From Alphaproteobacteria bacterium (GTDB lineage Bacteria; Planctomycetota; Phycisphaerae; UBA1845): 64,000 nt of DNA. The notes under the pieces are model-generated. The model was not told the DNA's origin. It ran no database searches and was given only the letters and a program-made list of their open reading frames with translations. Positions 36,309 through 50,118 of the stretch are shown here, in pieces; positions within the stretch are counted from its first letter, which is position 1, and each line of letters opens with the position of its first letter. Where the stretch lies: positions 40,256 to 104,255 of the forward strand of contig JANQQE010000029.1 in the NCBI GenBank assembly GCA_028285105.1, read 5' to 3'. The position numbers and the translations under genes were made by a program.

Positions 36309-37262
36309 ATGGTTACGACTCTTCGATTCATTGCCAGCCTACTCGGTCCGTCGCCTGTTGTGGATTCGGTCCCAGAAAAACGTGCCCAGCAGACGCGCCT
36401 GTCCTGTTGGTTTCCGTATCTCTTTCTTCATGTCGGCTGTCTTGGCGTGATCTGGGTGGGGTGGAGTTGGATTGCTGTGGCAGTGGCTGTGGCGCTCTAT
36501 TTTGTCCGGATGTTTGCGGTCACCGCGTTTTATCACCGTTATTTTTCCCACCGCACGTTTAAGACTTCGAGGTTTACCCAGTTTGTTTTTGCCGTCTGGG
36601 CGAATTCAGCCGCTCAACGCGGACCGATCTGGTGGGCTTGCCAGCACCGTCACCACCACCAACATTCCGACGATGAATGCGATGCCCATTCGCCCGATCA
36701 GCATGGCTTCTACTGGAGTCATATCGGTTGGCTTACGGCGCCGGACAACCTTGTGATTCATGCGCGACGTGTCCCGGACCTGCTTAGATTTCCTGAATTG
36801 CGATTTCTGGATCGATTCAGCGTGCTTGTGCCGTTGATCCTCGCAACTGTTCTGTATGGACTGGGCGCAGCGCTTGCGCACTTCACACCGAGTTTGGGCA
36901 CCAATGGTTGGCAGATGGTCGTGTGGGGATTCTTCATTTCGACGGTGGTCCTTTTTCACGGAACCTGCACGATCAATTCGCTCGCACATTTGCTGGGTTC
37001 GCGAAGATTTCGTACGACGGACAGCAGTCGAAACAGTCTATTGCTCGCAATGCTGACGCTGGGTGAAGGCTGGCATAACAATCATCATCGATATCCTGGA
37101 ACCGTCAAACAGGGTTTCTATTGGTGGGAGATCGATCCCACCTATGTCGGTTTGCGGTTCTTCGAGTGGATCGGTTTGATCTGGGAACTCAATCCCGTGC
37201 CCGAAAAGATTCTTGCCGAAGGTCAAGCCCAAGTGCATCGACCGTTGTCGGAGAGCAACTGA
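36309..37262 (+). CDS. Acyl-CoA/acyl-lipid delta-9-type fatty acid desaturase
   Basis: Three His boxes HRYFSH, HRHHH, HNNHH; TINSLAH; WEIDPTY. Confidence 0.93.
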   Translation: MVTTLRFIASLLGPSPVVDSVPEKRAQQTRLSCWFPYLFLHVGCLGVIWVGWSWIAVAVAVALYFVRMFAVTAFYHRYFSHRTFKTSRFTQFVFAVWANSAAQRGPIWWACQHRHHHQHSDDECDAHSPDQHGFYWSHIGWLTAPDNLVIHARRVPDLLRFPELRFLDRFSVLVPLILATVLYGLGAALAHFTPSLGTNGWQMVVWGFFISTVVLFHGTCTINSLAHLLGSRRFRTTDSSRNSLLLAMLTLGEGWHNNHHRYPGTVKQGFYWWEIDPTYVGLRFFEWIGLIWELNPVPEKILAEGQAQVHRPLSESN

Positions 37263-38506
37263 TGCAAATCGCTGTAATCGGCACGGGAATCTCCGGTTTG
37301 GTCGCGTCATACCTGCTTTCGGATCAATACGATCTGACCGTATTCGAGGCAAACGATTACGTGGGCGGTCACACCCATACGATTACTGTCGATGATCCAA
37401 CGGGCCCGACCAACGTTGACACCGGTTTCATCGTTTACAACGAATCGACCTACCCGAACTTCTGCAAACTGCTTGATCGCCTTGGTGTCGAAACCCAGCC
37501 GAGCAGCATGAGTTTCAGCGTTCGCGATGACGCTGCCGACATCGAATACAAGGGCGACAATCTCAATACCCTGTTCGCCCAGCGGAGCAACCTGCTTCGG
37601 TGGGGTCATTACCGAATGCTTTACGAAATCCTGCGGTTCTACCGGCAGTCGCGGCATCTTCTGAATGCACCGGCAGAACGATTGACCATGGGCCGCTACC
37701 TGCGGGAGCAGCGTTACTCGACGGAATTCATCGAGCGTCATCTGATACCGATGGGTGCAGCGATCTGGTCGGCAGATCCCGAGCAGTTCTATGACTTTCC
37801 TGCCGGGTATTTCGTCCGCTTTTGTTACAACCACGGAATGCTCAACATCCTCAAGCGCCCGCAGTGGCGGGTGATTCGCGGCGGGTCGAAGCAATATGTA
37901 CGCAAGATGATCGCGCCGTTTCGCGATCGCATTCGATTGAGCACACCCGTATCGGAGATCAAACGGCATGAAGATGGCGTGGAAGTTGTGTCGAAATCGT
38001 ATGGCGCGGAGCGATTTGATCAGGTGATCATTGCGGCGCACAGCGATCAGGCGCTGCGCATGCTCGCCAATCCGACGACAGCCGAGTCCGAAATTCTTCG
38101 GACGATGCGATATCAAGAAAACGATGTCGCCCTGCACCACGACACATCACGTCTGCCCCGACGTCAAAAAGCGTGGTCAAGTTGGAATTACCACATCCCC
38201 GAAAGACGGCAGTCCTCTGCGGTCGTCACGTACAACATGAACGAACTTCAGTCGCTGCGCACCGAAAGAACGTTTTGTGTGACGTTGAATTCGACGAATG
38301 ACATCGATCAAAAGAAATGCATTCGCCAACTCCGCTACGACCATCCCGTCTACACGACCGAAAGCGTTCTGTCGCAGAAGCGGCACGGAGAAATAAGCGG
38401 CAAAAACCGCACGCATTATTGCGGGGCATACTGGGGATACGGTTTTCATGAAGATGGGGTCAACAGCGCGCTGACGGTTTGCAAGGAATTCGGCAAGGAA
38501 CTTTGA
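37262..38506 (+). CDS. FAD-dependent oxidoreductase, UfaD/RSP_1091-like
   Basis: ATG 37262 overlaps the desaturase stop; IAVIGTGISGL dinucleotide fold; GGHTHT; VDTGFIVYN; CGAYWGYGFHEDG. Confidence 0.88.
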   Translation: MQIAVIGTGISGLVASYLLSDQYDLTVFEANDYVGGHTHTITVDDPTGPTNVDTGFIVYNESTYPNFCKLLDRLGVETQPSSMSFSVRDDAADIEYKGDNLNTLFAQRSNLLRWGHYRMLYEILRFYRQSRHLLNAPAERLTMGRYLREQRYSTEFIERHLIPMGAAIWSADPEQFYDFPAGYFVRFCYNHGMLNILKRPQWRVIRGGSKQYVRKMIAPFRDRIRLSTPVSEIKRHEDGVEVVSKSYGAERFDQVIIAAHSDQALRMLANPTTAESEILRTMRYQENDVALHHDTSRLPRRQKAWSSWNYHIPERRQSSAVVTYNMNELQSLRTERTFCVTLNSTNDIDQKKCIRQLRYDHPVYTTESVLSQKRHGEISGKNRTHYCGAYWGYGFHEDGVNSALTVCKEFGKEL

Positions 38507-38508
38507 CC

Positions 38509-39300
38509 ATGCACAGCGCGATTTACAAAGGTCGGGTTCGCCATCAGCGCTTTACACCCGTTCATCATGAATTCGATTATGCGTTGTTCATGATGTACCT
38601 CGATCTCGATGAACTACCCAATCTCTTTGATAACACGCGGTTGTGGTCGAATGGCGGCTGGGGCCTTGCGCGTTTCCGACGACGCGACCATCTCAAAGAC
38701 CACGCTCCGCCCACTCAGGACTTGCGCCAAGCCGTCCGCGATCTGGTCAGAGCGCGAACCGGTTCGACACCGTCCGGTCCCATTCGATTGCTAACGCATC
38801 TTGAATACTTCGGGCATCGATTCAATCCTGTGAGCCTTTTTTTCTGTTTTGACGATCGCAGCGAACACCTTGAAGCGATCGTTGTCGAAATCAACAACAC
38901 ACCCTGGGGCGAGCAACACTGCTACGTCCATCCTACCCATGACCGATCCAGACGCGGAAAAGCACTTTGTTTTGAGTTCGAGAAGGAATTCCACATCTCT
39001 CCATTTATGGCGATGAACATGCAGTACATCTGGACCTTCTCAAAACCTGCCGAACATTTTGCCGTTGTCATGGATACCATGAACAATGGCGAGAAGCACC
39101 TCAACGCTACGATGCAAATGCAACGCACAGAGTTGACCGCTGCCTCACTGAATCGCGCTCTTTTTCGCTACCCACTGATGACCACCCGGGTCCTTGCCGC
39201 CATCTACTGGCAGGCGCTGCGCCTGAGGCTGAAGGGTTGCCCGCGCTACACGCACCCCGCAACGCTCGCCCGAAAAAATCGAGGGGCCAAGACATGCTGA
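38509..39300 (+). CDS. DUF1365 protein, UfaO/RSP_1090-like
   Basis: IYKGRVRHQRFTPVHHEF, FNPVSLFFC, EINNTPWGEQHCY, KEFHISPFM, IYWQALRL. Confidence 0.9.
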   Translation: MHSAIYKGRVRHQRFTPVHHEFDYALFMMYLDLDELPNLFDNTRLWSNGGWGLARFRRRDHLKDHAPPTQDLRQAVRDLVRARTGSTPSGPIRLLTHLEYFGHRFNPVSLFFCFDDRSEHLEAIVVEINNTPWGEQHCYVHPTHDRSRRGKALCFEFEKEFHISPFMAMNMQYIWTFSKPAEHFAVVMDTMNNGEKHLNATMQMQRTELTAASLNRALFRYPLMTTRVLAAIYWQALRLRLKGCPRYTHPATLARKNRGAKTC

Positions 39301-40571
39301 GTAAAACGATCGTTCCGGTCTCGCAGCCTGCACCGCACGCGAGCCAGCCGGGCCTCTTGGATCGGATTGCCCGAAGGATGGTGGTTGCAGGTTTGCAACG
39401 CATTACCGCGGGCCGCTTGACTCTGACGGAAGGCGATGCACAGTCTCATTACGGCATTCAGAATACAGGTGAATCGACGGTACATATCCAAATCCATGAC
39501 CCGCGATTTTATCGATCCGTCGCATGGGGCGGAACACTGGGAGCCGGGCAGGCGTACATCAACGGGTGGTGGACATGCGACGATCTGACTCGCCTGATCC
39601 AGCTGGTCCTGCAAAATCAAGAATCGTTCGCCCAACTCAATGGGGGGCGAACGCGTTTTTCTGGAGCGCTATTGCGAGGGTGGAATCTGCTTCGGCGCAA
39701 CACGCTGAATGGAAGCCGGCAAAATATCGCAGCACACTATGACCTGAGCAACGAGTTCTACGAATTGTTCCTCGATGAATCCATGACCTATTCATGCGGT
39801 ATTTTCGAGTCAGAAAACGCGACGTTATACCAGGCGTCCGTCGCAAAACTCGATCGGATTTGCCGGAAACTCGAACTCAAGCCCGAAGATCATGTGATCG
39901 AAATCGGTACCGGGTGGGGCAGTTTTGCCATCCATGCAGCCAGGAACTACGGCTGTCGTATAACAACGACCACCATCTCGCAGCAGCAGTTCGATCTGGC
40001 AACCAAACGCTCTAAGGATGCAGGCCTGTCAGACCGAATCACGTTGCTGCAAACGGACTATCGTCAACTGACGGGCCAATACGACAAACTCGTGTCAATC
40101 GAAATGATCGAGGCCATCGGCTGGCAGCAATATCCCCAGTATTTCAGAATGTGCGGTGAACTGCTCAAACCGGAAGGCGTCGCTTGCATCCAGGCTATCA
40201 CGAAAGCCGACCGATTCTACGAAGACTCGAAACGGGCGGTCGATTTTATCAAACGATTCGTTTTTCCCGGAAGCTGTATACCATCCATCGGCGCGATGTC
40301 CGGCGCTGTCGCTCGCTCGTCGGATCTAACCATCGCGCATCTGGAAGACATCACACCGCACTACGCGACTACCCTTAGATGCTGGCGCGATCGGTTTAAC
40401 AGGCAGTTGCAAAACGTCCGCGCCCTCGGTTTCTCAGACGCATTCATCCGAATGTGGGAGTACTACCTTTGCTACTGCGAAGCCGGATTCCGCCAGCGGG
40501 TCATCGGAGACGTGCAGATGGTTTTGACCAAGCCTGGTTTCAGAGGGCAACTGCCATTGGGAACCCTATGA
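39294..40571 (+). CDS. cfa: SAM-dependent fatty-acyl-phospholipid methyltransferase (Cfa/UfaM family)
   Basis: NIAAHYDLSNEFYELFLDESMTYS, VIEIGTGWG, SIEMIEAIG, DFIKRFVFPG, HYATTL, MWEYYLCYCEAGF. Confidence 0.9.
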   Translation: MLSKTIVPVSQPAPHASQPGLLDRIARRMVVAGLQRITAGRLTLTEGDAQSHYGIQNTGESTVHIQIHDPRFYRSVAWGGTLGAGQAYINGWWTCDDLTRLIQLVLQNQESFAQLNGGRTRFSGALLRGWNLLRRNTLNGSRQNIAAHYDLSNEFYELFLDESMTYSCGIFESENATLYQASVAKLDRICRKLELKPEDHVIEIGTGWGSFAIHAARNYGCRITTTTISQQQFDLATKRSKDAGLSDRITLLQTDYRQLTGQYDKLVSIEMIEAIGWQQYPQYFRMCGELLKPEGVACIQAITKADRFYEDSKRAVDFIKRFVFPGSCIPSIGAMSGAVARSSDLTIAHLEDITPHYATTLRCWRDRFNRQLQNVRALGFSDAFIRMWEYYLCYCEAGFRQRVIGDVQMVLTKPGFRGQLPLGTL

Positions 40572-41149
40572 ACGAACCACCGAACATGTGGAGAATTGCA
40601 CTCGAAGTTGCCGGGTATCAGGTGGCTTGGTGGAGTTGCGTGCTGTCGGTTCGCGCCGAAGCGATATGGGTTGGCTTAACTGTGACAGTGGTCGTGTTCG
40701 CCATTCATCTTTCCTACTCGCCGAACGTTCAGGGCGAGCTTTGGGCCGTTCCCGTCGCTGCGGGAATGGGCTTCCTGACTGACATCGTGGCGACGTGGCT
40801 TGGCGCATTGAAGTTTGAATCGGCGACGCTGCCGCTGCTACCGGCACCGCTTTGGATCGCAGCCATGTGGTTGGCGTTTGCAATGCTGATCGTTCCATGT
40901 TTTGCCTGGCTGGCCGACCGCCCTTTGGCGGCTGCGTTGATGGGGGCGACGAGTGGACCCACCGCCTACGGTGCCGGTGTCGCACTTGGAATCGTGGAGA
41001 TGCCGCACCTTTGGTGGAGCGTTCTTACGCTCGCCGTCTTGTGGGCGATCGTTGTGCCGATTGCGATCAAGTTTGTTGTCGCATGTACGCTGGAATCGAT
41101 GACGGGCGAAGCATGTGTCGCAGCTCAACCGGAGACGCTTTGTGAATGA
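40568..41149 (+). CDS. DUF2878-like membrane protein
   Basis: ATGA coupling to cfa; YQVAWWSCV, APLWIAAMWLAFA, SGPTAYGAG; position typical of cfa clusters. Confidence 0.75.
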   Translation: MNEPPNMWRIALEVAGYQVAWWSCVLSVRAEAIWVGLTVTVVVFAIHLSYSPNVQGELWAVPVAAGMGFLTDIVATWLGALKFESATLPLLPAPLWIAAMWLAFAMLIVPCFAWLADRPLAAALMGATSGPTAYGAGVALGIVEMPHLWWSVLTLAVLWAIVVPIAIKFVVACTLESMTGEACVAAQPETLCE

Positions 41150-41933
41150 TTGGCTTCAACATCTCGGTTGGGGTTTGGGCGGTGCGGCCATCATGATGTT
41201 TGCCCTTTGGCTGATGCAGCGACGCACGAAGAATGCGGGGATTGTCGATGTGGGGTGGACTTTCGGAATCGGCGCGCTGACGCTTGGGCTTGCGGTATTT
41301 TCAAGCGGTGCGCTTTTTCGACGGGTGTTGGTTGCAACCATGACGATCGTCTGGTCGATGCGATTGGGTTACCACTTGGTGCGTCGCGTTTTCAGCGAAC
41401 CGGAGGACGGCCGCTACCGCAATCTCCGCGAATGGGCTGGCGATCGGCAGCAAATCGTGTTGCTCATATTCTTTTTGCTACAAGCCAGCTGGGTCGTTCT
41501 GTTCGCGATGCCTCAGTACATCGCCATGCAGAACGCGCGTCCGTTCGCCTGGTTCGACGCCGCGGCCATCGGCATATTCGCCGTTTCATTGATCGGCGAA
41601 TCGATCGCGGATCGACAGCTGGCCGCGTTTCGCGAATCCTCCGACAACCAAGGCAAGGTTTGCAAAATCGGATTGTGGCGTTACTCGAGGCATCCAAACT
41701 ACTTCTTCGAATGGCTGCATTGGTTCGCTTATCCGCTGTTGGCCGTCGGTATGGGCTGGCTCGCGTGGGTGACTTTGGTCGGTCCCGCATTGATGTTGCT
41801 GTTTCTGCTCAAGATTACCGGTATCCCTCCAACCGAGAAGCGTGCCCTTCAAAGTCGCGGCGAAAGATACCGAGAGTACCAACGCACCACCAGTGCATTT
41901 GTTCCCTGGTTTCCAAGGGAGAGTACGACATGA
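41142..41933 (+). CDS. DUF1295 (steroid 5-alpha-reductase-like) membrane protein
   Basis: NAGIVDVGW, EDGRY, ESIADRQL, GLWRYSRHPNYFFEWLHW, YREYQRTTSAFVPW; GTG 41142 with GGAG SD. Confidence 0.88.
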   Translation: MNDWLQHLGWGLGGAAIMMFALWLMQRRTKNAGIVDVGWTFGIGALTLGLAVFSSGALFRRVLVATMTIVWSMRLGYHLVRRVFSEPEDGRYRNLREWAGDRQQIVLLIFFLLQASWVVLFAMPQYIAMQNARPFAWFDAAAIGIFAVSLIGESIADRQLAAFRESSDNQGKVCKIGLWRYSRHPNYFFEWLHWFAYPLLAVGMGWLAWVTLVGPALMLLFLLKITGIPPTEKRALQSRGERYREYQRTTSAFVPWFPRESTT

Positions 41934-43054
41934 AAAGCGATTACAAATCATATGGACCGACTGCCCTGGCAGAACGTGGCTGGATACCGGAATTTTTGAT
42001 TCGCTGGGGCATTCGACGTCTGCTCAGCGCCCGCTTGCAAAAGGAATTGGGCGCCGATTGTGAGGAGCGCCACGAATCACAGCAGCGATTTCTTGAATCC
42101 ATGCATGACAGTCCGGTCGCAATCGTTCCGGAAAAAGCCAATGAGCAGCACTATGAAATCCCCGCAGCGTTTTTCGAGTTGGTACTCGGTCGCCATCGAA
42201 AATACAGTTGTTGCCAATGGACGGACCAAACGCATTCGCTTGACGACGCGGAGGCTGCGATGCTTTCCCTGACCTGCGAGCGTGCTGAACTCAAGGACGG
42301 CCAATCGATTTTGGAACTGGGATGTGGCTGGGGATCGCTCACGCTGTGGATGGCCAGACAGTATCCAAACGCCCGCATCACCGCGATCTCCAACTCGGCG
42401 AGTCAGGGGAGTTTTATTCGAAACCAGTGCGAGCAATCGGGTTTCAACAATGTCCGAGTGATGACGGCGGACATGAATGCATTCAAGCCGGACGGCGTGT
42501 TCGATCGGGTGATTTCCGTCGAGATGTTCGAGCACATGCGGAATCTAAGCGCACTGCTTCGCCGAATCGATGGTTGGCTGACCGAGGAAGGCAAGCTGTT
42601 CGTACATATTTTCACCCATCAATCGTGTTCCTACCCGTTCGAAACGACGGGAAAGGACGATTGGATGGGGCGATACTTTTTTTCAGGTGGCATGATGCCT
42701 TCCGACCACTTGCTGCTGTACTTGCAGGATACCTTGAAACTCGATCGCCACTGGTGCGTCAACGGTAAACACTATGAAAAAACGGCAAACGCATGGCTCA
42801 ACAATATGAATTCCCGTCGTTCGGAGATTCTGCCTGTCTTGCAACAGACGTATGGAGTAGCCGATGCCGAACGATGGTACCACCGCTGGCGAATGTTCTT
42901 CATGGCATGCGCCGAACTTTGGGGGTATCGCGATGGTAATGAATGGCGCGTTGGGCATTATTTGATGAGCCGTCGGGTGTCCACGGACTTGAAGTCGACG
43001 GGGGGCGATTCATTGGATTTTGTCAAAAGAGATACGCTATGCACTTCCGTTTGA
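41930..43054 (+). CDS. Second Cfa-like SAM-dependent methyltransferase
   Basis: ATGA coupling (ATG 41930); KANEQHYEIP, ILELGCGWG, SVEMFEHMRN, WMGRYFFSGG, WRMFFMACAELWG. Confidence 0.9.
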   Translation: MKSDYKSYGPTALAERGWIPEFLIRWGIRRLLSARLQKELGADCEERHESQQRFLESMHDSPVAIVPEKANEQHYEIPAAFFELVLGRHRKYSCCQWTDQTHSLDDAEAAMLSLTCERAELKDGQSILELGCGWGSLTLWMARQYPNARITAISNSASQGSFIRNQCEQSGFNNVRVMTADMNAFKPDGVFDRVISVEMFEHMRNLSALLRRIDGWLTEEGKLFVHIFTHQSCSYPFETTGKDDWMGRYFFSGGMMPSDHLLLYLQDTLKLDRHWCVNGKHYEKTANAWLNNMNSRRSEILPVLQQTYGVADAERWYHRWRMFFMACAELWGYRDGNEWRVGHYLMSRRVSTDLKSTGGDSLDFVKRDTLCTSV

Positions 43055-43668
43055 ATATTGCACTGGGCATGCTGGCGATGCTCTCCGGTTGCGAACGCCA
43101 ATCCGCGACTCCCGTTTCGACAGTGGATACGAATTCGGTTACACCGTCATCAAAGTTGGTGTCGGGTGATTCACTAAGAAGTCGCAGCAACAAAGCACTC
43201 AAGACCGTTGACGAAGTTGACCTCGATCGCTACCTCGGCAAATGGTATGAGTACGCCCGGTATCCGAACGCATTTCAGAAGAACATCGTAGGCGTCATTG
43301 CGGAGTATCGACGGCGCGACGACGGTCGTCTCGATGTCATCAACATGGGCAAGGTTCGGAAACTCGATGGCAAAGATGATCGATCCGAATCGATCGGATG
43401 GGTGGTTGAAGGGACCAAAAATACCCGCTGGCGGGTTCAGTTTATTTGGCCGTTCAGTGTTCCCTATTGGATCATCGATCTGGATGACGACTACCAATGG
43501 GCCGTCGTCGGTCAACCGTCCCGAAAATACCTGTGGGTCTTGAGTCGAACGCCACAACTCGATGACGAAATTTTCAGCGCAATCTGCGATCGATTGAAAG
43601 AGCAGGGCTACGATCCAGCGCGACTCAAGAAAACGCCCCAGCCTCAAGGAGACTCAAAGCCGAAATGA
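43039..43668 (+). CDS. blc: Lipocalin lipoprotein (Blc family)
   Basis: Lipobox LSG-C; VDLDRYLGKWYEYAR; QFIWPF; YWIIDLDDDYQWAVVG; YLWVLSRTP. Confidence 0.88.
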   Translation: MHFRLNIALGMLAMLSGCERQSATPVSTVDTNSVTPSSKLVSGDSLRSRSNKALKTVDEVDLDRYLGKWYEYARYPNAFQKNIVGVIAEYRRRDDGRLDVINMGKVRKLDGKDDRSESIGWVVEGTKNTRWRVQFIWPFSVPYWIIDLDDDYQWAVVGQPSRKYLWVLSRTPQLDDEIFSAICDRLKEQGYDPARLKKTPQPQGDSKPK

Positions 43669-43799: not shown

Positions 43800-44642
43800 T
43801 CACCCGGTAGAGCAACTGGCATCATCGAAAAATGTTCCCGTTGCTTGCCAGAGCGATTCCAGGCGATCGATACGCTCCCGAGCATCATCACCCAGCAAAA
43901 CAGCGGCGCGGGCGACGATGAGTTCGGCTGCTACGACTGCGGGCACGGAACTGTCGAACGGTCCGACTGCCGGAATCTTCAGGTGCCCCCATGCATGCGA
44001 GATTTGCGCAATCGGGGAAAGTGGTCCGTCGGTAATCGCGAGGATCTTGACGCCTTCATCGGCCAATGCCCTGGCTGCCGTAATCGAGTGACGCCGGTAG
44101 CGACTGAAATCGAACACGACCGCAGCTTCGCCGGCGCGGGCCCCGGCCAAATCCCTGCCCATTTCGTACTCGGTGACCAGTCGAACATCCGACCTGAGCA
44201 TCGACAATCCCGCATACAACGTGTGTGCCCCCGCCAACGAAGTCTCGCCGGAAAGGATCCAGACATGAGCCGCTTCGACCATCGGTTGAACCAGTGCGTC
44301 AAGTCGCCGATCGGTGAGCGACTCGAACACGTCGTAGACGGCTTCGAGCACCGATCGACGAAGCGGACCGGCTTCCTGCTGTTGCCGAATGCGATGGCTC
44401 GGTCTTGAGAGTTGATCTGAAACTTGGTCTCGTTCTTGCGCCTGGAGGTCCGAATACCCTTCGAATCCCAACTTCATCGCGAACCGCACGATGGAAGGCC
44501 GACTGGTGCCAACACGGTCGGCCAACTCCGAGACCGTCCCAAACGCGAGCAACGTCGGATTTTCCATTACTGCTTCGGCGATTCGACGTTCGGTCGGGGT
44601 GAGGCGGTCGCCCGCAGTCGCGATGAGATCCTGGATGGACAA
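43800..44642 (-). CDS. MurR/RpiR-family transcriptional regulator (HTH + SIS)
   Basis: LTPTERRIAE...TVSELADRVGTSRPSIVRFAMKLGFEGYSDLQ; SIS motifs VFDFSRY, ILAITDGPLSPIA. Confidence 0.92.
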   Translation of the reverse strand: MSIQDLIATAGDRLTPTERRIAEAVMENPTLLAFGTVSELADRVGTSRPSIVRFAMKLGFEGYSDLQAQERDQVSDQLSRPSHRIRQQQEAGPLRRSVLEAVYDVFESLTDRRLDALVQPMVEAAHVWILSGETSLAGAHTLYAGLSMLRSDVRLVTEYEMGRDLAGARAGEAAVVFDFSRYRRHSITAARALADEGVKILAITDGPLSPIAQISHAWGHLKIPAVGPFDSSVPAVVAAELIVARAAVLLGDDARERIDRLESLWQATGTFFDDASCSTG

Positions 44643-44665: not shown

Positions 44666-44703
44666 TTGCATAAACTTATTCAAAGTGTACACTATGTTAC
44701 ACT
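44666..44703 (+). promoter_or_regulatory. Sigma70-type promoter overlapped by a palindromic operator
   Basis: TTGCAT(44666)-N16-TACACT(44688); perfect inverted repeat AGTGTA-N8-TACACT (44684-44703) in the 101-bp gap between the RpiR gene and the operon. Confidence 0.6.
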
Positions 44704-44743: not shown

Positions 44744-46210
44744 ATGATCCAGAAGCTGAAACACATCCCGACGGCGCGCGAACAGGCTTTTCTCGACACC
44801 GTCGAGGATACGCAATACCAGCGCGACATCATCAACGGACTCTCACCATTTTTCGATGAAAAAGCGCCTGCGGACATGCTTCAATTCTATTCCAAAGGCG
44901 AAGTCGCCTCGCTCCGCGTTCTCAAGGGGACCGACCGCGATGTCGAAGATCGCATGCCGGTCAAGATTACACGTCACTATTACGAGTTGGCGAAGAACTC
45001 AGAACCGATCAGCCGAATCGTCAAAGCCAGCCCGGACGAAACGGACAACCTTCAGGGTTCTGAAGACCCCGGTTTTCAAATGGACTATGCGCCGGTCGAA
45101 GGGCTGCTCCACAAATACGAAATGGGCTTGATGTACGTCATCTCGACATGCTCTGCACACTGTCGATTTTGTTACCGCGAAGAACTCATCGCCCGAAAAG
45201 ATATTGAACGGCAGGACGGGACCGTTGCCAAGAAGGGTCTGGCACAGATTCCCGAGATCATCGCATACATCAAAGAACACAATGACGCGGTGGAAGCCAA
45301 CGGTGGTCGTCACCCCGAAAGCGGACGCGAGAAACTCCGAGAGATTCTCCTGTCGGGTGGTGACGCCATGGTCCTTGGCAATTCCAAACTTGCCGCATGG
45401 TTCGGTGCGCTTGCCGAAGCCGGGATCGAATCCATCCGCGTCGGAACCAAGGAGATGGCGTTCTACCCCCAGCGCTTCGACCGCACGCTGCTTGAAATGC
45501 TCGACCGATTCCATGAAACGTACCCGCAGGTCGGGATGCACTTCATGCTTCACTTTCAGCACCCCGACGAAATTCTTGCCAAGGATGCTGACGGAAACTA
45601 CATCGAGGATGAAAAGGGCTTCAAGCAGTGGATTCCGGAAACCGGCGAAGCAATGCGCGGGCTGGTCTCGCGCGGGTGGCTGACTGTTGAAAATCAGGCA
45701 CCGATCATCAAAGGCATCAACGACGATGCCGATGCACTTCGCATTCTCCAGCGAGAATTCAAACGCGCTGGCGGAGAGAACCACTACTTTTTCTGTGGCC
45801 GCGATATCGTCGCATACAAAGCGTTTAACATTCCCATCGAAGAGGCGTGGAGTATTCTCAACACGTCCCAGAGGGGTTTATCCGGTGTAGAATGCCACGC
45901 CAAACTTTCGATCACGCACTACAAAGGCAAGACCGAAGTGGCGGCAGTGACCAACGAACCGATTCCGGGCCTTGCCGGTTCCGAAAACGGTGTCGTGATT
46001 TTCAAGATCCTGCGTAATGCCGGTAGCGCGCCAGACAAAGGAAAGGTCTGCATCGTCGGCCGCAACCCCAATGCCGTCTGGTTCGACGATTACGAAGACC
46101 GTGTCCTCTTCGATGAAGCCGGTTTGTATAATTACGACCGAGTGAAGAAATCGGGTGAAGCGCCGAGTAGTTGTTCGGCTTCCGCCGGCAAACCAGGGTG
46201 TGCGGGATGA
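44744..46210 (+). CDS. KamA-family radical-SAM/PLP amino acid 2,3-aminomutase, probably non-lysine substrate
   Basis: EGLLHKY, CSAHCRFCYR (CxxxCxxC plus Arg), LLSGGDA, HFQHPDEI, NQAPIIKGIND, GKTEV (PLP Lys); ATG 44744 with GGAG SD. Confidence 0.85.
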   Translation: MIQKLKHIPTAREQAFLDTVEDTQYQRDIINGLSPFFDEKAPADMLQFYSKGEVASLRVLKGTDRDVEDRMPVKITRHYYELAKNSEPISRIVKASPDETDNLQGSEDPGFQMDYAPVEGLLHKYEMGLMYVISTCSAHCRFCYREELIARKDIERQDGTVAKKGLAQIPEIIAYIKEHNDAVEANGGRHPESGREKLREILLSGGDAMVLGNSKLAAWFGALAEAGIESIRVGTKEMAFYPQRFDRTLLEMLDRFHETYPQVGMHFMLHFQHPDEILAKDADGNYIEDEKGFKQWIPETGEAMRGLVSRGWLTVENQAPIIKGINDDADALRILQREFKRAGGENHYFFCGRDIVAYKAFNIPIEEAWSILNTSQRGLSGVECHAKLSITHYKGKTEVAAVTNEPIPGLAGSENGVVIFKILRNAGSAPDKGKVCIVGRNPNAVWFDDYEDRVLFDEAGLYNYDRVKKSGEAPSSCSASAGKPGCAG

Positions 46211-46917
46211 TCGACAAGCGTGTGAACACGCCGCATGAAGTGGTCGCCGACATCTTCGACGGTGCGACCATCATGATTGGCGGGTTTGGGGAAGCGGGCA
46301 GTCCGGTCGAGTTGCTCCATGCGATCATCGATCAAGGTGCATCCGACCTGACGATCATAAGCAACAACACCGGTTCGGGCGAAGTCGGTCTCGCGGCGCT
46401 CATCAAAGTCGGGCGGGTTTCAAAAGCGATCTGCTCCTATCCGCGCACTGCCAACTCGACTGTTTTTGCAGAACTCTATCGAAGCGGTCGCATCGAACTC
46501 GAACTTGTTCCGCAGGGTACGTTGGCTGAACGCATTCGTTGCGGTGGTGCGGGGGTGCCGGCGTTTTATACCGCAACGGCCGTCGGTACCCCGCTGGCTG
46601 AGGGTAAGGAACTGCGCGAGTTTGAAGGCAAGCAATACGTACTAGAGCGGGGCCTTCGAGCAGACTTTACGATCATCAAGGCCCGCACTGCCGACGTTCA
46701 CGGTAACCTTTTATACAACAAGACGGCCCGCAATTTCGCGCCGATCATGGCGACGGCATCGAACTGTACGATCGTGCAGGCGCAGGATGTCGTTGAGGCA
46801 GGCGACATCGATCCGGAAACCGTTGTGACGCCCGGTTTGTTCGTAGATCGTGTTGTTCAAGTCGCAGAACCAGCCCACGAATCCGAACTTGTCGCCGCCG
46901 GAGCTTCCTACCCATGA
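46207..46917 (+). CDS. pcaI: 3-oxoadipate CoA-transferase subunit A-like
   Basis: IMIGGFGEAGSP, SNNTGSGEVGLAAL, CSYPRTANSTVFAELYRSGRIELELVPQGTLAERIR, ARNFAPIMA; ATGA coupled. Confidence 0.85.
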   Translation: MIDKRVNTPHEVVADIFDGATIMIGGFGEAGSPVELLHAIIDQGASDLTIISNNTGSGEVGLAALIKVGRVSKAICSYPRTANSTVFAELYRSGRIELELVPQGTLAERIRCGGAGVPAFYTATAVGTPLAEGKELREFEGKQYVLERGLRADFTIIKARTADVHGNLLYNKTARNFAPIMATASNCTIVQAQDVVEAGDIDPETVVTPGLFVDRVVQVAEPAHESELVAAGASYP

Positions 46918-47597
46918 CCAGCAAAGATTCGAAAGCGGGTTGGTCGCGCGAGGAGATGGCTGCCCGTCTTGCTCAAGACATTCCCAACGGGTCGTATGTG
47001 AACCTTGGCATCGGTATTCCTGAACTCGTTGCCAGATTCGTACCCGAAGACAAGACGCTCATCTACCACACCGAGAATGGCTTGATTGGAATGGGCCCTT
47101 CACCGGAAGCGGGACAAGGCGATCCTGAACTGATCAATGCAGGCAAGCGTCAAGTCACGGCGATGCCCGGTGCGGCATACTTTCATCACGCCGACAGTTT
47201 CGTCATGATTCGTGGTGGACACATCGATCTGTGTGTCCTCGGTGCGCTTCAGGTCGCGCAAAATGGCGACCTCGCAAATTGGTCCACCGGTCAGCCCGAC
47301 GCAATACCGGCGGTCGGTGGTGCGATGGACCTCGTCGCAGGGGTCAAGTCCATCTACGTCATCACCCAGCACACAACCAAGCATGGCGATCCAAAACTCG
47401 TCGAATCCTGTACGTATCCACTGACCGGGCTTGGCGTGGTCGATCGCATTTACACGAACCTCGCCGTCATCGAAGTGACGCCGGATGGGTTTGGCGTCAG
47501 CGAACTCAGTCCGGGTATCGATTTCCAAGACGTGCAAAACCAAACCGGCGCTCCACTCAGCGATATCCGCGAAAGCGCGACGGCAAACAACCCATGA
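46914..47597 (+). CDS. pcaJ: 3-oxoadipate CoA-transferase subunit B-like
   Basis: YVNLGIGIP, HTENG (catalytic Glu), LINAGK, YFHHADSF.MIRGGH, IPAVGGAMDL, CTYPLTG; ATGA coupled. Confidence 0.85.
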   Translation: MTSKDSKAGWSREEMAARLAQDIPNGSYVNLGIGIPELVARFVPEDKTLIYHTENGLIGMGPSPEAGQGDPELINAGKRQVTAMPGAAYFHHADSFVMIRGGHIDLCVLGALQVAQNGDLANWSTGQPDAIPAVGGAMDLVAGVKSIYVITQHTTKHGDPKLVESCTYPLTGLGVVDRIYTNLAVIEVTPDGFGVSELSPGIDFQDVQNQTGAPLSDIRESATANNP

Positions 47598-48916
47598 ACA
47601 CACGAACCGATCTCTCGCGTTGCGCCGATCTTTTTGCTCGGGCGCAGAAAGTTCTACCGGGTGGCGTTTCACGTAACACAGTCTTACGTTCACCCTATCC
47701 CGCGTATGCAGACTACGGAAAAGGTTGCCACGTCACCGATCTTGACGGGGTCACACGCATCGACTTCTCCAATAACATGGCCTCCCTCATCCACGGGCAC
47801 GCCCATCCCGAAATTGTCCGGGTCGTCAACGAGCAGATGGCCCGCGGCTCGGCATTCATGCTGGCGACTGAGGTTGAAGTGCAGTATGCGGAACACCTGT
47901 GTTCACGCTCGCCTTCGTTCGACATGCTGCGATTTGTAAACTCCGGGACCGAAGCCATCATGGTCGCGATCAAAGCCAGTCGTGCATTTACAGGTAAATT
48001 TAAAGTCGCAAAGGTGGAAGGTGCCTACCACGGAGGGTACGACTACGCGGAAGTCTCGCAAGCGCCGACACCGGAGACATGGGGCAGCCACGACAAACCG
48101 CACTCAGTGCCTCTGGTGCATGGCACGCCAGAGTCTTCGCTGCGCGACGTCGTGATCATTCCCTTTAACGACACCGACCGGGCCATCAAGATCTTAAACG
48201 AACACGCCCACGAGGTTGCCTGCGTTCTGCTCGATCTCATGCCGCACCGAGTCGGATTGAATCTCGTCAAGCCGGAATACATCGAAGCAATACAGAAGTG
48301 GGTTGCCGATCACGACGCCCTCCTGGTACTCGACGAAGTTATTACCTTTCGTTCTGAGTACGGCGGACTGCAAACTCGCTATGGCATCAAGTCTGACCTC
48401 ACTGCTCTTGGCAAGATGATCGGCGGCGGTTTTCCAGTCGGCGCCGTCGCGGGCCGGGCCGATGTCATGGACGTCCTTAATCCCAAATCGCACCGGTTCC
48501 TGTTCCCTCACTCCGGCACGTTTTCGGCCAACCCGATTTCGATGTCGGCGGGTTTGATGGCGATGGCGTTATTCGACCAGAAGGAGGTCGCGAGACTGAA
48601 CGCCCTGACCGATCGTGCGATTGACGGTATCAGAAAAGCCATCGACACCACGGGAGCCTGCGCGTGCGTCACGGGCGGTGGATCGATGTTGCGCGTTCAT
48701 ATGAAAGAAGAACCACCGCACAATTTTCGCGAAGCATTCAATACGGACGCCGAGAAAATGCGATTGGCCACGCTGCTCGATCACCTGTTCTCCGAGGGCT
48801 TTATCATGATCAACACCTGCTCGGCGACGCTTTCAACGCCCATGACGGAAATCGAAATCGATGCGCTCGTTGCGGCCATGGAATCAGGACTCGCAAAGAT
48901 CGCGTCAATGCCTTAG
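47594..48916 (+). CDS. Class III PLP aminotransferase (HemL-like fold, not HemL)
   Basis: ATG 47594 with ATGA coupling; LPGGVSRN, RFVNSGTEA, GAYHGGYD, LDEVITFR, DLTALGKMIGGGFPVGA, HSGTFSANP. Confidence 0.9.
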   Translation: MNTRTDLSRCADLFARAQKVLPGGVSRNTVLRSPYPAYADYGKGCHVTDLDGVTRIDFSNNMASLIHGHAHPEIVRVVNEQMARGSAFMLATEVEVQYAEHLCSRSPSFDMLRFVNSGTEAIMVAIKASRAFTGKFKVAKVEGAYHGGYDYAEVSQAPTPETWGSHDKPHSVPLVHGTPESSLRDVVIIPFNDTDRAIKILNEHAHEVACVLLDLMPHRVGLNLVKPEYIEAIQKWVADHDALLVLDEVITFRSEYGGLQTRYGIKSDLTALGKMIGGGFPVGAVAGRADVMDVLNPKSHRFLFPHSGTFSANPISMSAGLMAMALFDQKEVARLNALTDRAIDGIRKAIDTTGACACVTGGGSMLRVHMKEEPPHNFREAFNTDAEKMRLATLLDHLFSEGFIMINTCSATLSTPMTEIEIDALVAAMESGLAKIASMP

Positions 48917-50118
48917 GCCTTCGAGAAAATCGTGGCAAGACCTTGCCCAACGCCAACACACAATGAAGCGATTCCTCGTTCAACGCCTCGTCGACTCATC
49001 TCGTGGATCAGCGTTGTCGCGATCCGTGTACCGCTGCATCCGAGCGGGTGTCCAATTGCAATTGCGCCACCGTTTACATTGAGTTTGTCGTCAGTGATCT
49101 TGAGGTCGCGCTGACAAGCGATCGACTGCGCGGCAAAGGCTTCGTTGATTTCAACAAGTCCGACATCGTCAAGTGTAAGCCCCGCCCGATCCAATGCCTT
49201 GCGGATCGCCGGTACCGGTCCAAGTCCCATGTAAGCCGGGTCAACGCCGGCTGACGCACTGCAACCGACGAATGCGATGGGTTTCAAACCCAGCGCCGCT
49301 GCTTTTGATTCTTCGACGATCAGCAAGGCGGCTGCCCCATCGTTCACGCCCGAAGAATTCCCAGCCGTCACAGTTCCTTTGTCATCCTTTGCAAACACGG
49401 GGCGGAGTTTGGCCAACTGCTCCATGGTCACGTCGGGCCGGGGATGCTCATCTGTATCCACGACCAGCGCCGGTCCTTTTCGCTGAGAAATTTCAACCGG
49501 CACGATCTCATCGTTAAATGCGCCTTGCTTCTGCGCTTTTGCCCACTTCTGTTGGCTCGACAACGCAAATCGATCCTGCGATTCTCGATCGATTCCGTAT
49601 TTGCGTGCCACATTCTCCGCTGTCTCACCCATCGGAAACGGGTGATGCTTCTCAGCCAACTTTGGATTTACAAAGCGCCACCCGATGGACGTGTCGTAGA
49701 TTTGTTGTGTCCGACCATATGCATTCTCGGACTTGCTCAGCACGTATGGGGCACGGCTCATCGACTCGACTCCGCCAGCCACAAACACATCGCCGTGATT
49801 CGCCTCAATCATGCGGGCTGCGATGTTGATGGCTTCAAGCCCCGAAGCACACAGACGATTGACCGTTGACCCCGGAATCGTCTCGGGGAGTCCGGCGAGC
49901 AATGCGGCCATCCGCGCGACATTGCGGTTGTCTTCACCAGCCTGGTTGGCGGCACCGAAGTAGACATCGTCGATCAGCGAAGACTCGATGCCTGATCGCT
50001 GGATGACAGCGCGAATGACGGTGGCAGCAAGATCATCGGGCCGAACCGTAGCAAGCCTTCCACCAAATCGTCCGACCGGCGTGCGGACAGCAGCAATAAC
50101 AGCAGCTCGACGTTTCAT
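48913..50118 (-). CDS. pcaF: Beta-ketoadipyl-CoA thiolase-like (PcaF/PaaJ family)
   Basis: VRPDDLAA, ANQAGEDNRNVARMA, TVNRLCASG (Cys), TSIGWRFVNP, NEAFA, GGAIAIGHPLG, SLCVGVGQG. Confidence 0.85.
   Translation of the reverse strand: MKRRAAVIAAVRTPVGRFGGRLATVRPDDLAATVIRAVIQRSGIESSLIDDVYFGAANQAGEDNRNVARMAALLAGLPETIPGSTVNRLCASGLEAINIAARMIEANHGDVFVAGGVESMSRAPYVLSKSENAYGRTQQIYDTSIGWRFVNPKLAEKHHPFPMGETAENVARKYGIDRESQDRFALSSQQKWAKAQKQGAFNDEIVPVEISQRKGPALVVDTDEHPRPDVTMEQLAKLRPVFAKDDKGTVTAGNSSGVNDGAAALLIVEESKAAALGLKPIAFVGCSASAGVDPAYMGLGPVPAIRKALDRAGLTLDDVGLVEINEAFAAQSIACQRDLKITDDKLNVNGGAIAIGHPLGCSGTRIATTLIHEMSRRGVERGIASLCVGVGQGLATIFSKA

Follow-up and report, generated by a model that had tools for sequence, protein, structure and literature searches.

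A PcaIJ-type CoA-transferase pair among amino-acid enzymes in a Phycisphaerae genome: a likely step between 2-aminoadipate and 3-oxoadipyl-CoA

Introduction

Annotation of a gene as a 3-oxoadipate CoA-transferase is commonly taken as a marker of aromatic degradation, and JGI so names many members of the group described here. In a 64,000-nucleotide stretch of contig JANQQE010000029.1 (positions 40,256 to 104,255; hereafter the window), from a Phycisphaerae metagenome-assembled genome (MAG; 36 contigs, 97.8% complete), two genes encoding the A and B subunits of such a transferase lie between a putative radical-SAM aminomutase and an aminotransferase. What does a PcaI/PcaJ-like pair do in such a place? 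A first, sequence-only reading of the window proposed that the pair is PcaIJ-type and not SCOT-type, that it is detached from aromatic degradation and recruited for amino-acid catabolism, and that it possibly came from a proteobacterial-type donor. Here, we find that the pair belongs to the PcaIJ clade, that its linkage to the aminomutase is conserved, and that its partners are swapped in distant copies of the operon. We think it likely that an undescribed route for lysine/2-aminoadipate, independent of oxygen, has this pair as its third step; the route would occur in several phyla with two aminomutase branches and four interchangeable modules that consume 3-oxoadipate.

The pair is PcaIJ-type

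Both reading frames are intact, and ATGA stop/start overlaps join the aminomutase to A (46207-46210), A to B (46914-46917) and B to the aminotransferase (47594-47597). All the motifs quoted in the sequence-only reading were located: subunit A carries CSYPR at A76-80 and VFAELYRSGRIELE at A86-99, and subunit B carries FHHADSF at B90-96 and IPAVGGAMDL at B131-140. Subunit A, the acid-binding side, also has GGFGEAGSP at A25-33, and the catalytic Glu54 of B, within HTENG, aligns as the counterpart of E46 in CtfB (CtfB from PMC12400318). The same reading had set the pair between two pyridoxal phosphate (PLP) enzymes; the overlaps with both neighbours bear this out, and PLP use by the first of them is taken from its family membership. 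With A at 336 bits against TIGR02429 (cut-off 128.5; also a PF01144 match), B at 293 bits against TIGR02428 (cut-off 243.55) and HTENG present, the pair is a two-subunit family I CoA-transferase. These two NCBIfam models span PcaIJ and ScoAB alike, and the top solved-structure matches of the pair are SCOTs; as neither search can tell PcaIJ from SCOT, we used context-labelled references and trees.

Reference pairs were drawn from annotated plasmid records and classed by gene neighbourhood. Of these, 12 come from pca, cat or maleylacetate clusters or adjoin pcaF; their labels rest on context, and the set does not include the P. putida and A. baylyi enzymes that have been assayed. The SCOT side comprised Bacillus scoAB adjoining 3-hydroxybutyrate dehydrogenase, Clostridium ctfAB, E. 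coli atoDA and the genome's own ScoA/ScoB. In two maximum-likelihood trees of A+B, the window pair falls in a 100/100 clade with 12/12 pca/cat-context pairs and no SCOT, and forcing it into the SCOT group was rejected (approximately unbiased (AU) test, p-AU 0.0003). The PcaIJ assignment of the sequence-only reading is upheld on both counts, and the grouping with an acetoacetate SCOT that would have overturned it was not observed. Subunit A shares 52–66% identity with PcaI-clade references and 38–55% with SCOT/Ato/Ctf references, whilst the genome's own ScoA and ScoB are 50% and 44% identical to window A and B.

The motifs follow the same division. CSFPR, FHH[AG]DSF and PAVGGAMDL are present in 12/12 pca/cat-context reference pairs and in none of the SCOT/AtoDA/CtfAB references, which instead show [AS]S[YH]-[VI]G[EST]N and [KSP]G[MP]GG[AG]MDL; the SCOT motifs (SY-VGEN, KG[MP]GG) are absent from the window pair. 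Among related operons, CS[FY]PR is kept in 94/112 A subunits, FHHADSF in 87/101 B subunits and PAVGGAMDL in 97/101. The sequence-only reading had taken these motifs as specific to 3-oxoadipate, which holds against the SCOT/AtoDA/CtfAB references but fails against DcaIJ of the Acinetobacter dca cluster, which activates adipate (PMC13373117). An Acinetobacter pair in a cluster of dca layout carries close variants of the pca-clade motifs and nests beside Acinetobacter PcaIJ, and a transferase from the pca operon of Ralstonia CL21 has been implicated in adipate and glutarate use (10.1101/2025.02.21.639450). Because DcaIJ carries them and the Ralstonia enzyme is so implicated, the motifs mark C5-C6 dicarboxylate transferases, not 3-oxoadipate alone.

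Within the clade, the operon pairs form a subclade of their own, in which the Glu of GGFGE is present in 109/118 members and which differs in this from the pca-context references, where it is absent. The sister of this subclade is a pair from Tistrella mobilis (L094:1599-9391; L numbers denote loci), which adjoins HglS, a piperideine-6-carboxylate dehydrogenase (P6CDH) and a class I aminotransferase; neither an aminomutase nor pcaF was found in that 16.7-kb stretch.

No aromatic ring-cleavage branch found

The proposed detachment from aromatic degradation is supported in the genome and across related loci. No intradiol dioxygenase, PaaA/C or over-cut-off PcaD was found in the 97.8%-complete genome, nor did PcaG, H, B, C, CatA, CatC, PobA, Gct-type PcaIJ or BKACE give a tblastn match in it. 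A maleylacetate reductase ortholog was likewise not found in the genome, the sole match being partial and 28% identical. Pca/cat structural genes occur in 0/161 related loci, and a PF00775 search of operon-bearing relatives gave no match in 8/9. The protocatechuate or catechol branch in the same regulon that would have spoken against the sequence-only reading was thus seen neither at the locus, nor in the genome, nor in the 161 loci. The genome encodes a separate ScoA and ScoB, whose genes (C7:158859-159488 and C7:192687-193265) lie 33 kb apart and are not adjacent.

Conserved linkage and swapped partners

Relatives of the aminomutase were found in 402 stretches of a species-level genome collection, and the best 80 (42 Planctomycetota and 38 Verrucomicrobiota) were compared. 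Subunit A lies directly 3' of the aminomutase in 78/78 of these loci with enough downstream sequence; B is linked in 72, the aminotransferase in 67, the thiolase in 33 and the RpiR regulator in 29, counts that are limited by contig ends. The nearest relatives come from MAGs titled Phycisphaerae. Motiliproteus sp. MSK22-1 (GCA_001968815.1; A and B each 71% identical to the window subunits) and a Desulfuromusa MAG have the same A-B-transaminase-PcaF cassette, but a second KamA-like branch, only 23% identical to the window aminomutase, heads it there. Members of this second branch (L211:7315-8913, L212:7243-8841 and L213:7383-8984) are 532–533 aa long and below the Pfam cut-off, and the cassette they head is also found on a 5.8-Mb contig.

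The window aminomutase passes none of the named aminomutase models: TIGR00238, its best match, gives 86 bits (cut-off 199), the lysine model 69 (525) and the glutamate 2,3-aminomutase model 77 (650). Its CxxxCxxC is kept at 161/161 loci. In lysine 2,3-aminomutase (LAM), Asp293 binds the side-chain amine of lysine. Arg353 of the window enzyme aligns to this residue (2A5H), Arg is present there in 154/161 loci, and the second branch also has Arg at the equivalent position. With Arg replacing the residue that holds the lysine amine, an acidic substrate appears likely, and its presence in both branches would suit one.

Distant copies of the operon, in which the aminomutase is 60–67% identical, exchange the CoA-transferase step. 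In L108, L110 and L113, the replacement pair nests among alphaproteobacterial pca pairs, and the thiolases scanned (L108, L141, L155, L161 and L179) are all over the PcaF cut-off. A Mesorhizobium locus (L093) has a Gct-type pair, 81–83% identical to a pair inside a pcaCHG-IJ-F-B cluster. L116, L136, L172 and L177 encode a BKACE scoring over the 3-oxoadipate:acetyl-CoA acetyltransferase model NF053568 (460–483 bits vs. 350); BKACE enzymes act on the free keto acid. In L172 the BKACE is followed by a true SCOT, which would fit a release of acetoacetate by that BKACE. The transaminases of the BKACE loci spread through the family of the window transaminase. From these assignments, 3-oxoadipate would be the one compound common to all the swapped modules.

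A separate observation concerns the Mesorhizobium locus (sp. 113-3-3), where the Gct-type PcaI gene (L093:12227-13049) has a frame change near its 3' end and is absent from the record's annotation, being either a pseudogene or the product of a sequencing error.

Lysine genes co-cluster with the operon in several lineages. P6CDH homologs occur in 11/80 distant loci (over cut-off where scanned) and a lysine 6-dehydrogenase-like (LysDH-like) gene in five of the 80. L177 holds a full run from lysine to BKACE, in the order LysDH-like, P6CDH, aminomutase, ferredoxin, transaminase, BKACE. Among Chthoniobacterales, L019 and L053 encode lysine 6-transaminase (Lat), P6CDH, aminomutase, A, B and transaminase on one strand, whilst L207 and L210 have Lat and P6CDH just past the thiolase; in these close relatives (A 75–76% and B 76–80% identical to the window pair) both lysine enzymes are over cut-off. 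In the window genome, a P6CDH over cut-off (809 vs. 730) and a LysDH-like gene are present away from the operon. P6CDH is found in 7/7 operon genomes vs. 51/181 overall in the class, which is compatible with a link but weak because the kin genomes are not independent. The co-clustered genes would make 2-aminoadipate, of which a 2,3-shift and transamination would yield 3-oxoadipate. The conserved aminomutase linkage, the partner swaps and these lysine genes together support the recruitment for amino-acid catabolism that the sequence-only reading had suggested.

Directly 3' of lat and P6CDH in L210, and before the thiolase, lies a gene (L210:14360-15760) for a protein of 466 aa that matches neither Pfam nor NCBIfam; an 89% identical copy is present in L029.

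Proposed route and alternative readings

On balance, the pair is probably a succinyl-CoA:3-oxoadipate CoA-transferase acting on 3-oxoadipate derived from an amino acid and not from a ring. We infer the enzyme activities, what the substrate is and which of the two middle steps comes first from sequence comparison, and the transfer of CoA from succinyl-CoA to 3-oxoadipate from the partner swaps. In the proposed route, lysine would be oxidised to L-2-aminoadipate by the unlinked LysDH-like protein and P6CDH, the radical-SAM aminomutase would shift the amino group from C2 to C3 to give 3-aminoadipate, and the transaminase would convert this to free 3-oxoadipate. A and B would then move CoA from succinyl-CoA onto 3-oxoadipate via a glutamyl-CoA on B-Glu54, and the thiolase would split 3-oxoadipyl-CoA into succinyl-CoA and acetyl-CoA, restoring the CoA donor. 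Downstream of 2-aminoadipate, neither oxygen nor a redox step would be required. Transamination is placed before CoA transfer because the BKACE loci have no thioester-making enzyme and their transaminases spread through the same family.

Several observations weigh against this proposal. The motifs of the window pair also fit DcaIJ, the PcaIJ clade appears promiscuous among C5-C6 diacids, and the Glu of GGFGE in the subclade could reflect an altered substrate. The window thiolase is below the PcaF cut-off, the loci compared are phylogenetically non-independent, and the Gct-type swap was seen in just one locus, whose alpha gene is broken. The lysine genes of the window genome are unlinked to the operon, Lat was looked for there and not found, and the presence of a glutaryl-CoA dehydrogenase-like gene suggests that the standard lysine route may coexist with the proposed one. 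HglS occurs in two of five operon-bearing genomes, and a mutual exclusion of operon and HglS was rejected on this count (2/5 have both).

The middle steps could run in reverse order, the pair converting 3-aminoadipate to 3-aminoadipyl-CoA, which would then be transaminated as the thioester to 3-oxoadipyl-CoA in the manner of Kat. The gene order aminomutase-A-B-transaminase matches this sequence of steps, Kat, itself HemL-like, takes thioesters only (PMC3149608), DcaIJ activates a C6 diacid without a 3-oxo group, and the conserved Glu of the subclade adjoins pocket residues (F24/L25 in CtfA) and could bind the amine. We nevertheless regard this order as unlikely: L116, L136 and L177 have BKACE only and no CoA-transferase to make a prior thioester, with transaminases of the same family, L108, L110 and L113 make do with canonical pca-clade pairs that lack this Glu, and the Glu is also missing from a few operon members. 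Were the reversed order true after all, activation of 3-aminoadipate would be a new CoA-transferase activity, a prospect that we hold equally doubtful. A C5 diacid is a somewhat fainter prospect again, whether by a path from glutamate through 3-aminoglutarate and 3-oxoglutarate to 3-oxoglutaryl-CoA or by glutarate activation in ordinary lysine breakdown. The Arg that would mark an acidic substrate cannot tell glutamate from aminoadipate, PcaIJ-type enzymes have been implicated in glutarate use (10.1101/2025.02.21.639450) and some Chthoniobacterales copies have a glutaryl-CoA dehydrogenase-like gene nearby. However, the aminomutase is far below the cut-off of the glutamate 2,3-aminomutase model, every swapped partner matches 3-oxoadipate enzymes, the linked upstream genes yield 2-aminoadipate, and neither the aminomutase nor the transaminase would be accounted for by glutarate activation.

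It is very improbable that the pair is an acetoacetate SCOT in a route resembling lysine fermentation. The SCOTs at the head of the structure matches, the shared TIGR models and the true SCOT that follows BKACE in one related operon (L172) speak for it, but those structure matches include no molecule named as a 3-oxoadipate CoA-transferase, the tree and AU test rule a SCOT out, and the genome's own ScoA and ScoB are distant from the pair. Hardly any weight falls on an aromatic pathway encoded elsewhere, with the position in the operon being incidental: in a MAG of 36 contigs a few genes could be missing, and a PF00775 match occurs in one of the nine operon-bearing relatives, but upper-pathway genes were not found in the genome or the 161 loci, the reading frames overlap, and the linkage is kept across phyla.

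Gene neighbourhood

The locus is a six-gene unit (Table 1) in which the RpiR gene is divergent and the thiolase gene converges on the operon, overlapping the end of the aminotransferase gene by 4 bases. The aminotransferase is under the HemL cut-off, and its best PDB match is 6K8H (E 4.6e-109), ahead of any GSAM; we take 6K8H to be an omega-transaminase acting on beta-amino acids. A separate HemL-like gene is encoded on contig C24 of the genome. The best models of the thiolase are 3-oxoadipyl-CoA thiolases, slightly below cut-off (TIGR02430, 559 vs. 597). An inverted repeat (AGTGTA-N8-TACACT, window 44684-44703) in the gap separating the RpiR gene from the start of the aminomutase gene is a candidate operator; a promoter scan gave no sigma-70 site by the rule applied, and terminators were at chance level. 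On the other side of the RpiR gene, a run of open reading frames at window 36309-43668 (desaturase-like, FAD oxidoreductase-like, methyltransferase-like and lipocalin-like) ends beside it and looks like a lipid-modification operon.

Table 1 Features of the operon and its flanking genes in the window.
Feature	Position	Strand	Length or domains
RpiR-family regulator, divergent from operon, start codon uncertain	43800..44642	-	PF01418 + PF01380
KamA-like radical-SAM 2,3-aminomutase, uncharacterised branch; proposed 2-aminoadipate 2,3-aminomutase	44744..46210	+	488 aa
CoA-transferase subunit A, PcaI-type (OXCT1-like family I)	46207..46917	+	236 aa
CoA-transferase subunit B, PcaJ-type	46914..47597	+	227 aa
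Class III GSAM-like aminotransferase; proposed 3-aminoadipate transaminase	47594..48916	+	440 aa
PcaF-like thiolase; proposed 3-oxoadipyl-CoA thiolase	48913..50118	-	401 aa

The layout varies between lineages. Inserted DNA of 0.8–4.6 kb separates A and B in 9/28 Verrucomicrobiota loci (L024, L026, L027, L030, L035, L057, L058, L060 and L062) vs. 0/41 Planctomycetota loci, and small genes for a four-helix bundle (PF05635) and a PD-(D/E)XK protein (PF13366) often lie between B and the aminotransferase gene. An FdxA-type ferredoxin is encoded in 35/80 distant loci (many among L093-L177), usually directly 3' of the aminomutase; it is not in the window operon, and two tandem homologs are present on genome contig C24. 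Several marine loci (L167-L171 and L173-L175) encode only the aminomutase and its LysR regulator; neither a transferase nor a transaminase was seen in the downstream sequence covered.

Origin of the pair

The closest relatives of the pair are in Planctomycetota and Verrucomicrobiota (72–92% identity), with Gammaproteobacteria and Desulfuromusa copies outside this group and proteobacterial sequences only on deeper branches. Codon use is ordinary for the host genome. A recent transfer was considered and rejected for want of a compositional signal (codon-usage percentiles 72 for A and 48 for B, GC content at third codon positions (GC3) percentiles 53 and 41). The proteobacterial donor suggested in the sequence-only reading is not borne out by the nearest relatives, the host-typical codon use or the depth of the proteobacterial branches; a proteobacterial ancestry of the clade as a whole is plausible, on references that are plasmid-biased. 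Lateral spread of the operon is likely: the aminomutase is found in 7/181 genomes of the class, a close subunit A in only four of 36 family genomes (one of the four on a separate branch), and identity to Verrucomicrobiota copies (A 75–77%, B 75–82%) is above that of HemL (53%) and P6CDH (65%). This difference is tempered by the slower evolution of the operon, relative to HemL, within the genus.

Significance

Taken by itself, the pair is a PcaIJ-clade member in a new setting, whose reaction is probably a known one, and DcaIJ is a precedent for a role of the clade outside aromatic degradation. The transferase is the best clue to the substrate of the two uncharacterised enzymes beside it, and it points to a new entry of amino acids into 3-oxoadipate, a target of adipic-acid bioproduction. 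A literature search for the route found nothing relevant, most subscription journals being out of reach. If the proposal is true, a widespread subclade serves lysine catabolism instead of aromatic degradation, and metagenomic inferences of aromatic degradation would not hold for Planctomycetota, Verrucomicrobiota and several marine Gammaproteobacteria.

Comparison with known systems

Like the PcaIJ/CatIJ enzymes of the Pseudomonas putida/Acinetobacter type (OXCT1-like, EC 2.8.3.6), the window pair is a two-subunit family I transferase with a catalytic Glu motif; the two have CS[FY]PR, FHH[AG]DSF and PAVGGAMDL in common, share the 100/100 clade and are both linked to a PcaF-like thiolase. Unlike the PcaIJ/CatIJ loci, the window locus has no pca/cat genes or IclR-type PcaR, with RpiR in its place (LysR or XRE in relatives), and its pair belongs to the separate GGFGE subclade and is coupled to an aminomutase and a transaminase. 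Membership of the Gct-type PcaIJ/CatIJ was not found, matches to Gct-family structures being weak and the genome giving no Gct-type match. ScoAB/SCOT, AtoDA and CtfAB have the fold family and ping-pong mechanism in common with the pair at 38–55% identity, but are without its two-residue-longer PR loop and its other motifs.

DcaIJ belongs to the same clade with near-identical motifs, and is a PcaIJ-type enzyme with an established role outside aromatic degradation. It nests, however, beside Acinetobacter PcaIJ, in the other half of the clade from the window pair (56% and 53% identity), and it is surrounded by beta-oxidation genes (dcaA, E, H, F) and not by genes for amino-acid rearrangement; no dicarboxylate beta-oxidation genes were found in the window operon, which sets the pair apart from DcaIJ.

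Similar in its steps is the variant of lysine fermentation that uses KamA and Kat, the latter acting on 3-aminobutyryl-CoA (PMC3149608): it likewise combines a radical-SAM 2,3-shift, beta-transamination, CoA transfer and thiolysis. KamDE, Kdd and Kal were not among the recurrent operon neighbours identified. Unlike the KamA of this fermentation, the window aminomutase carries Arg in place of Asp293 and falls short of all the named models, and in contrast to the fermentation variant, the end enzymes of the window operon are of the 3-oxoadipate type.

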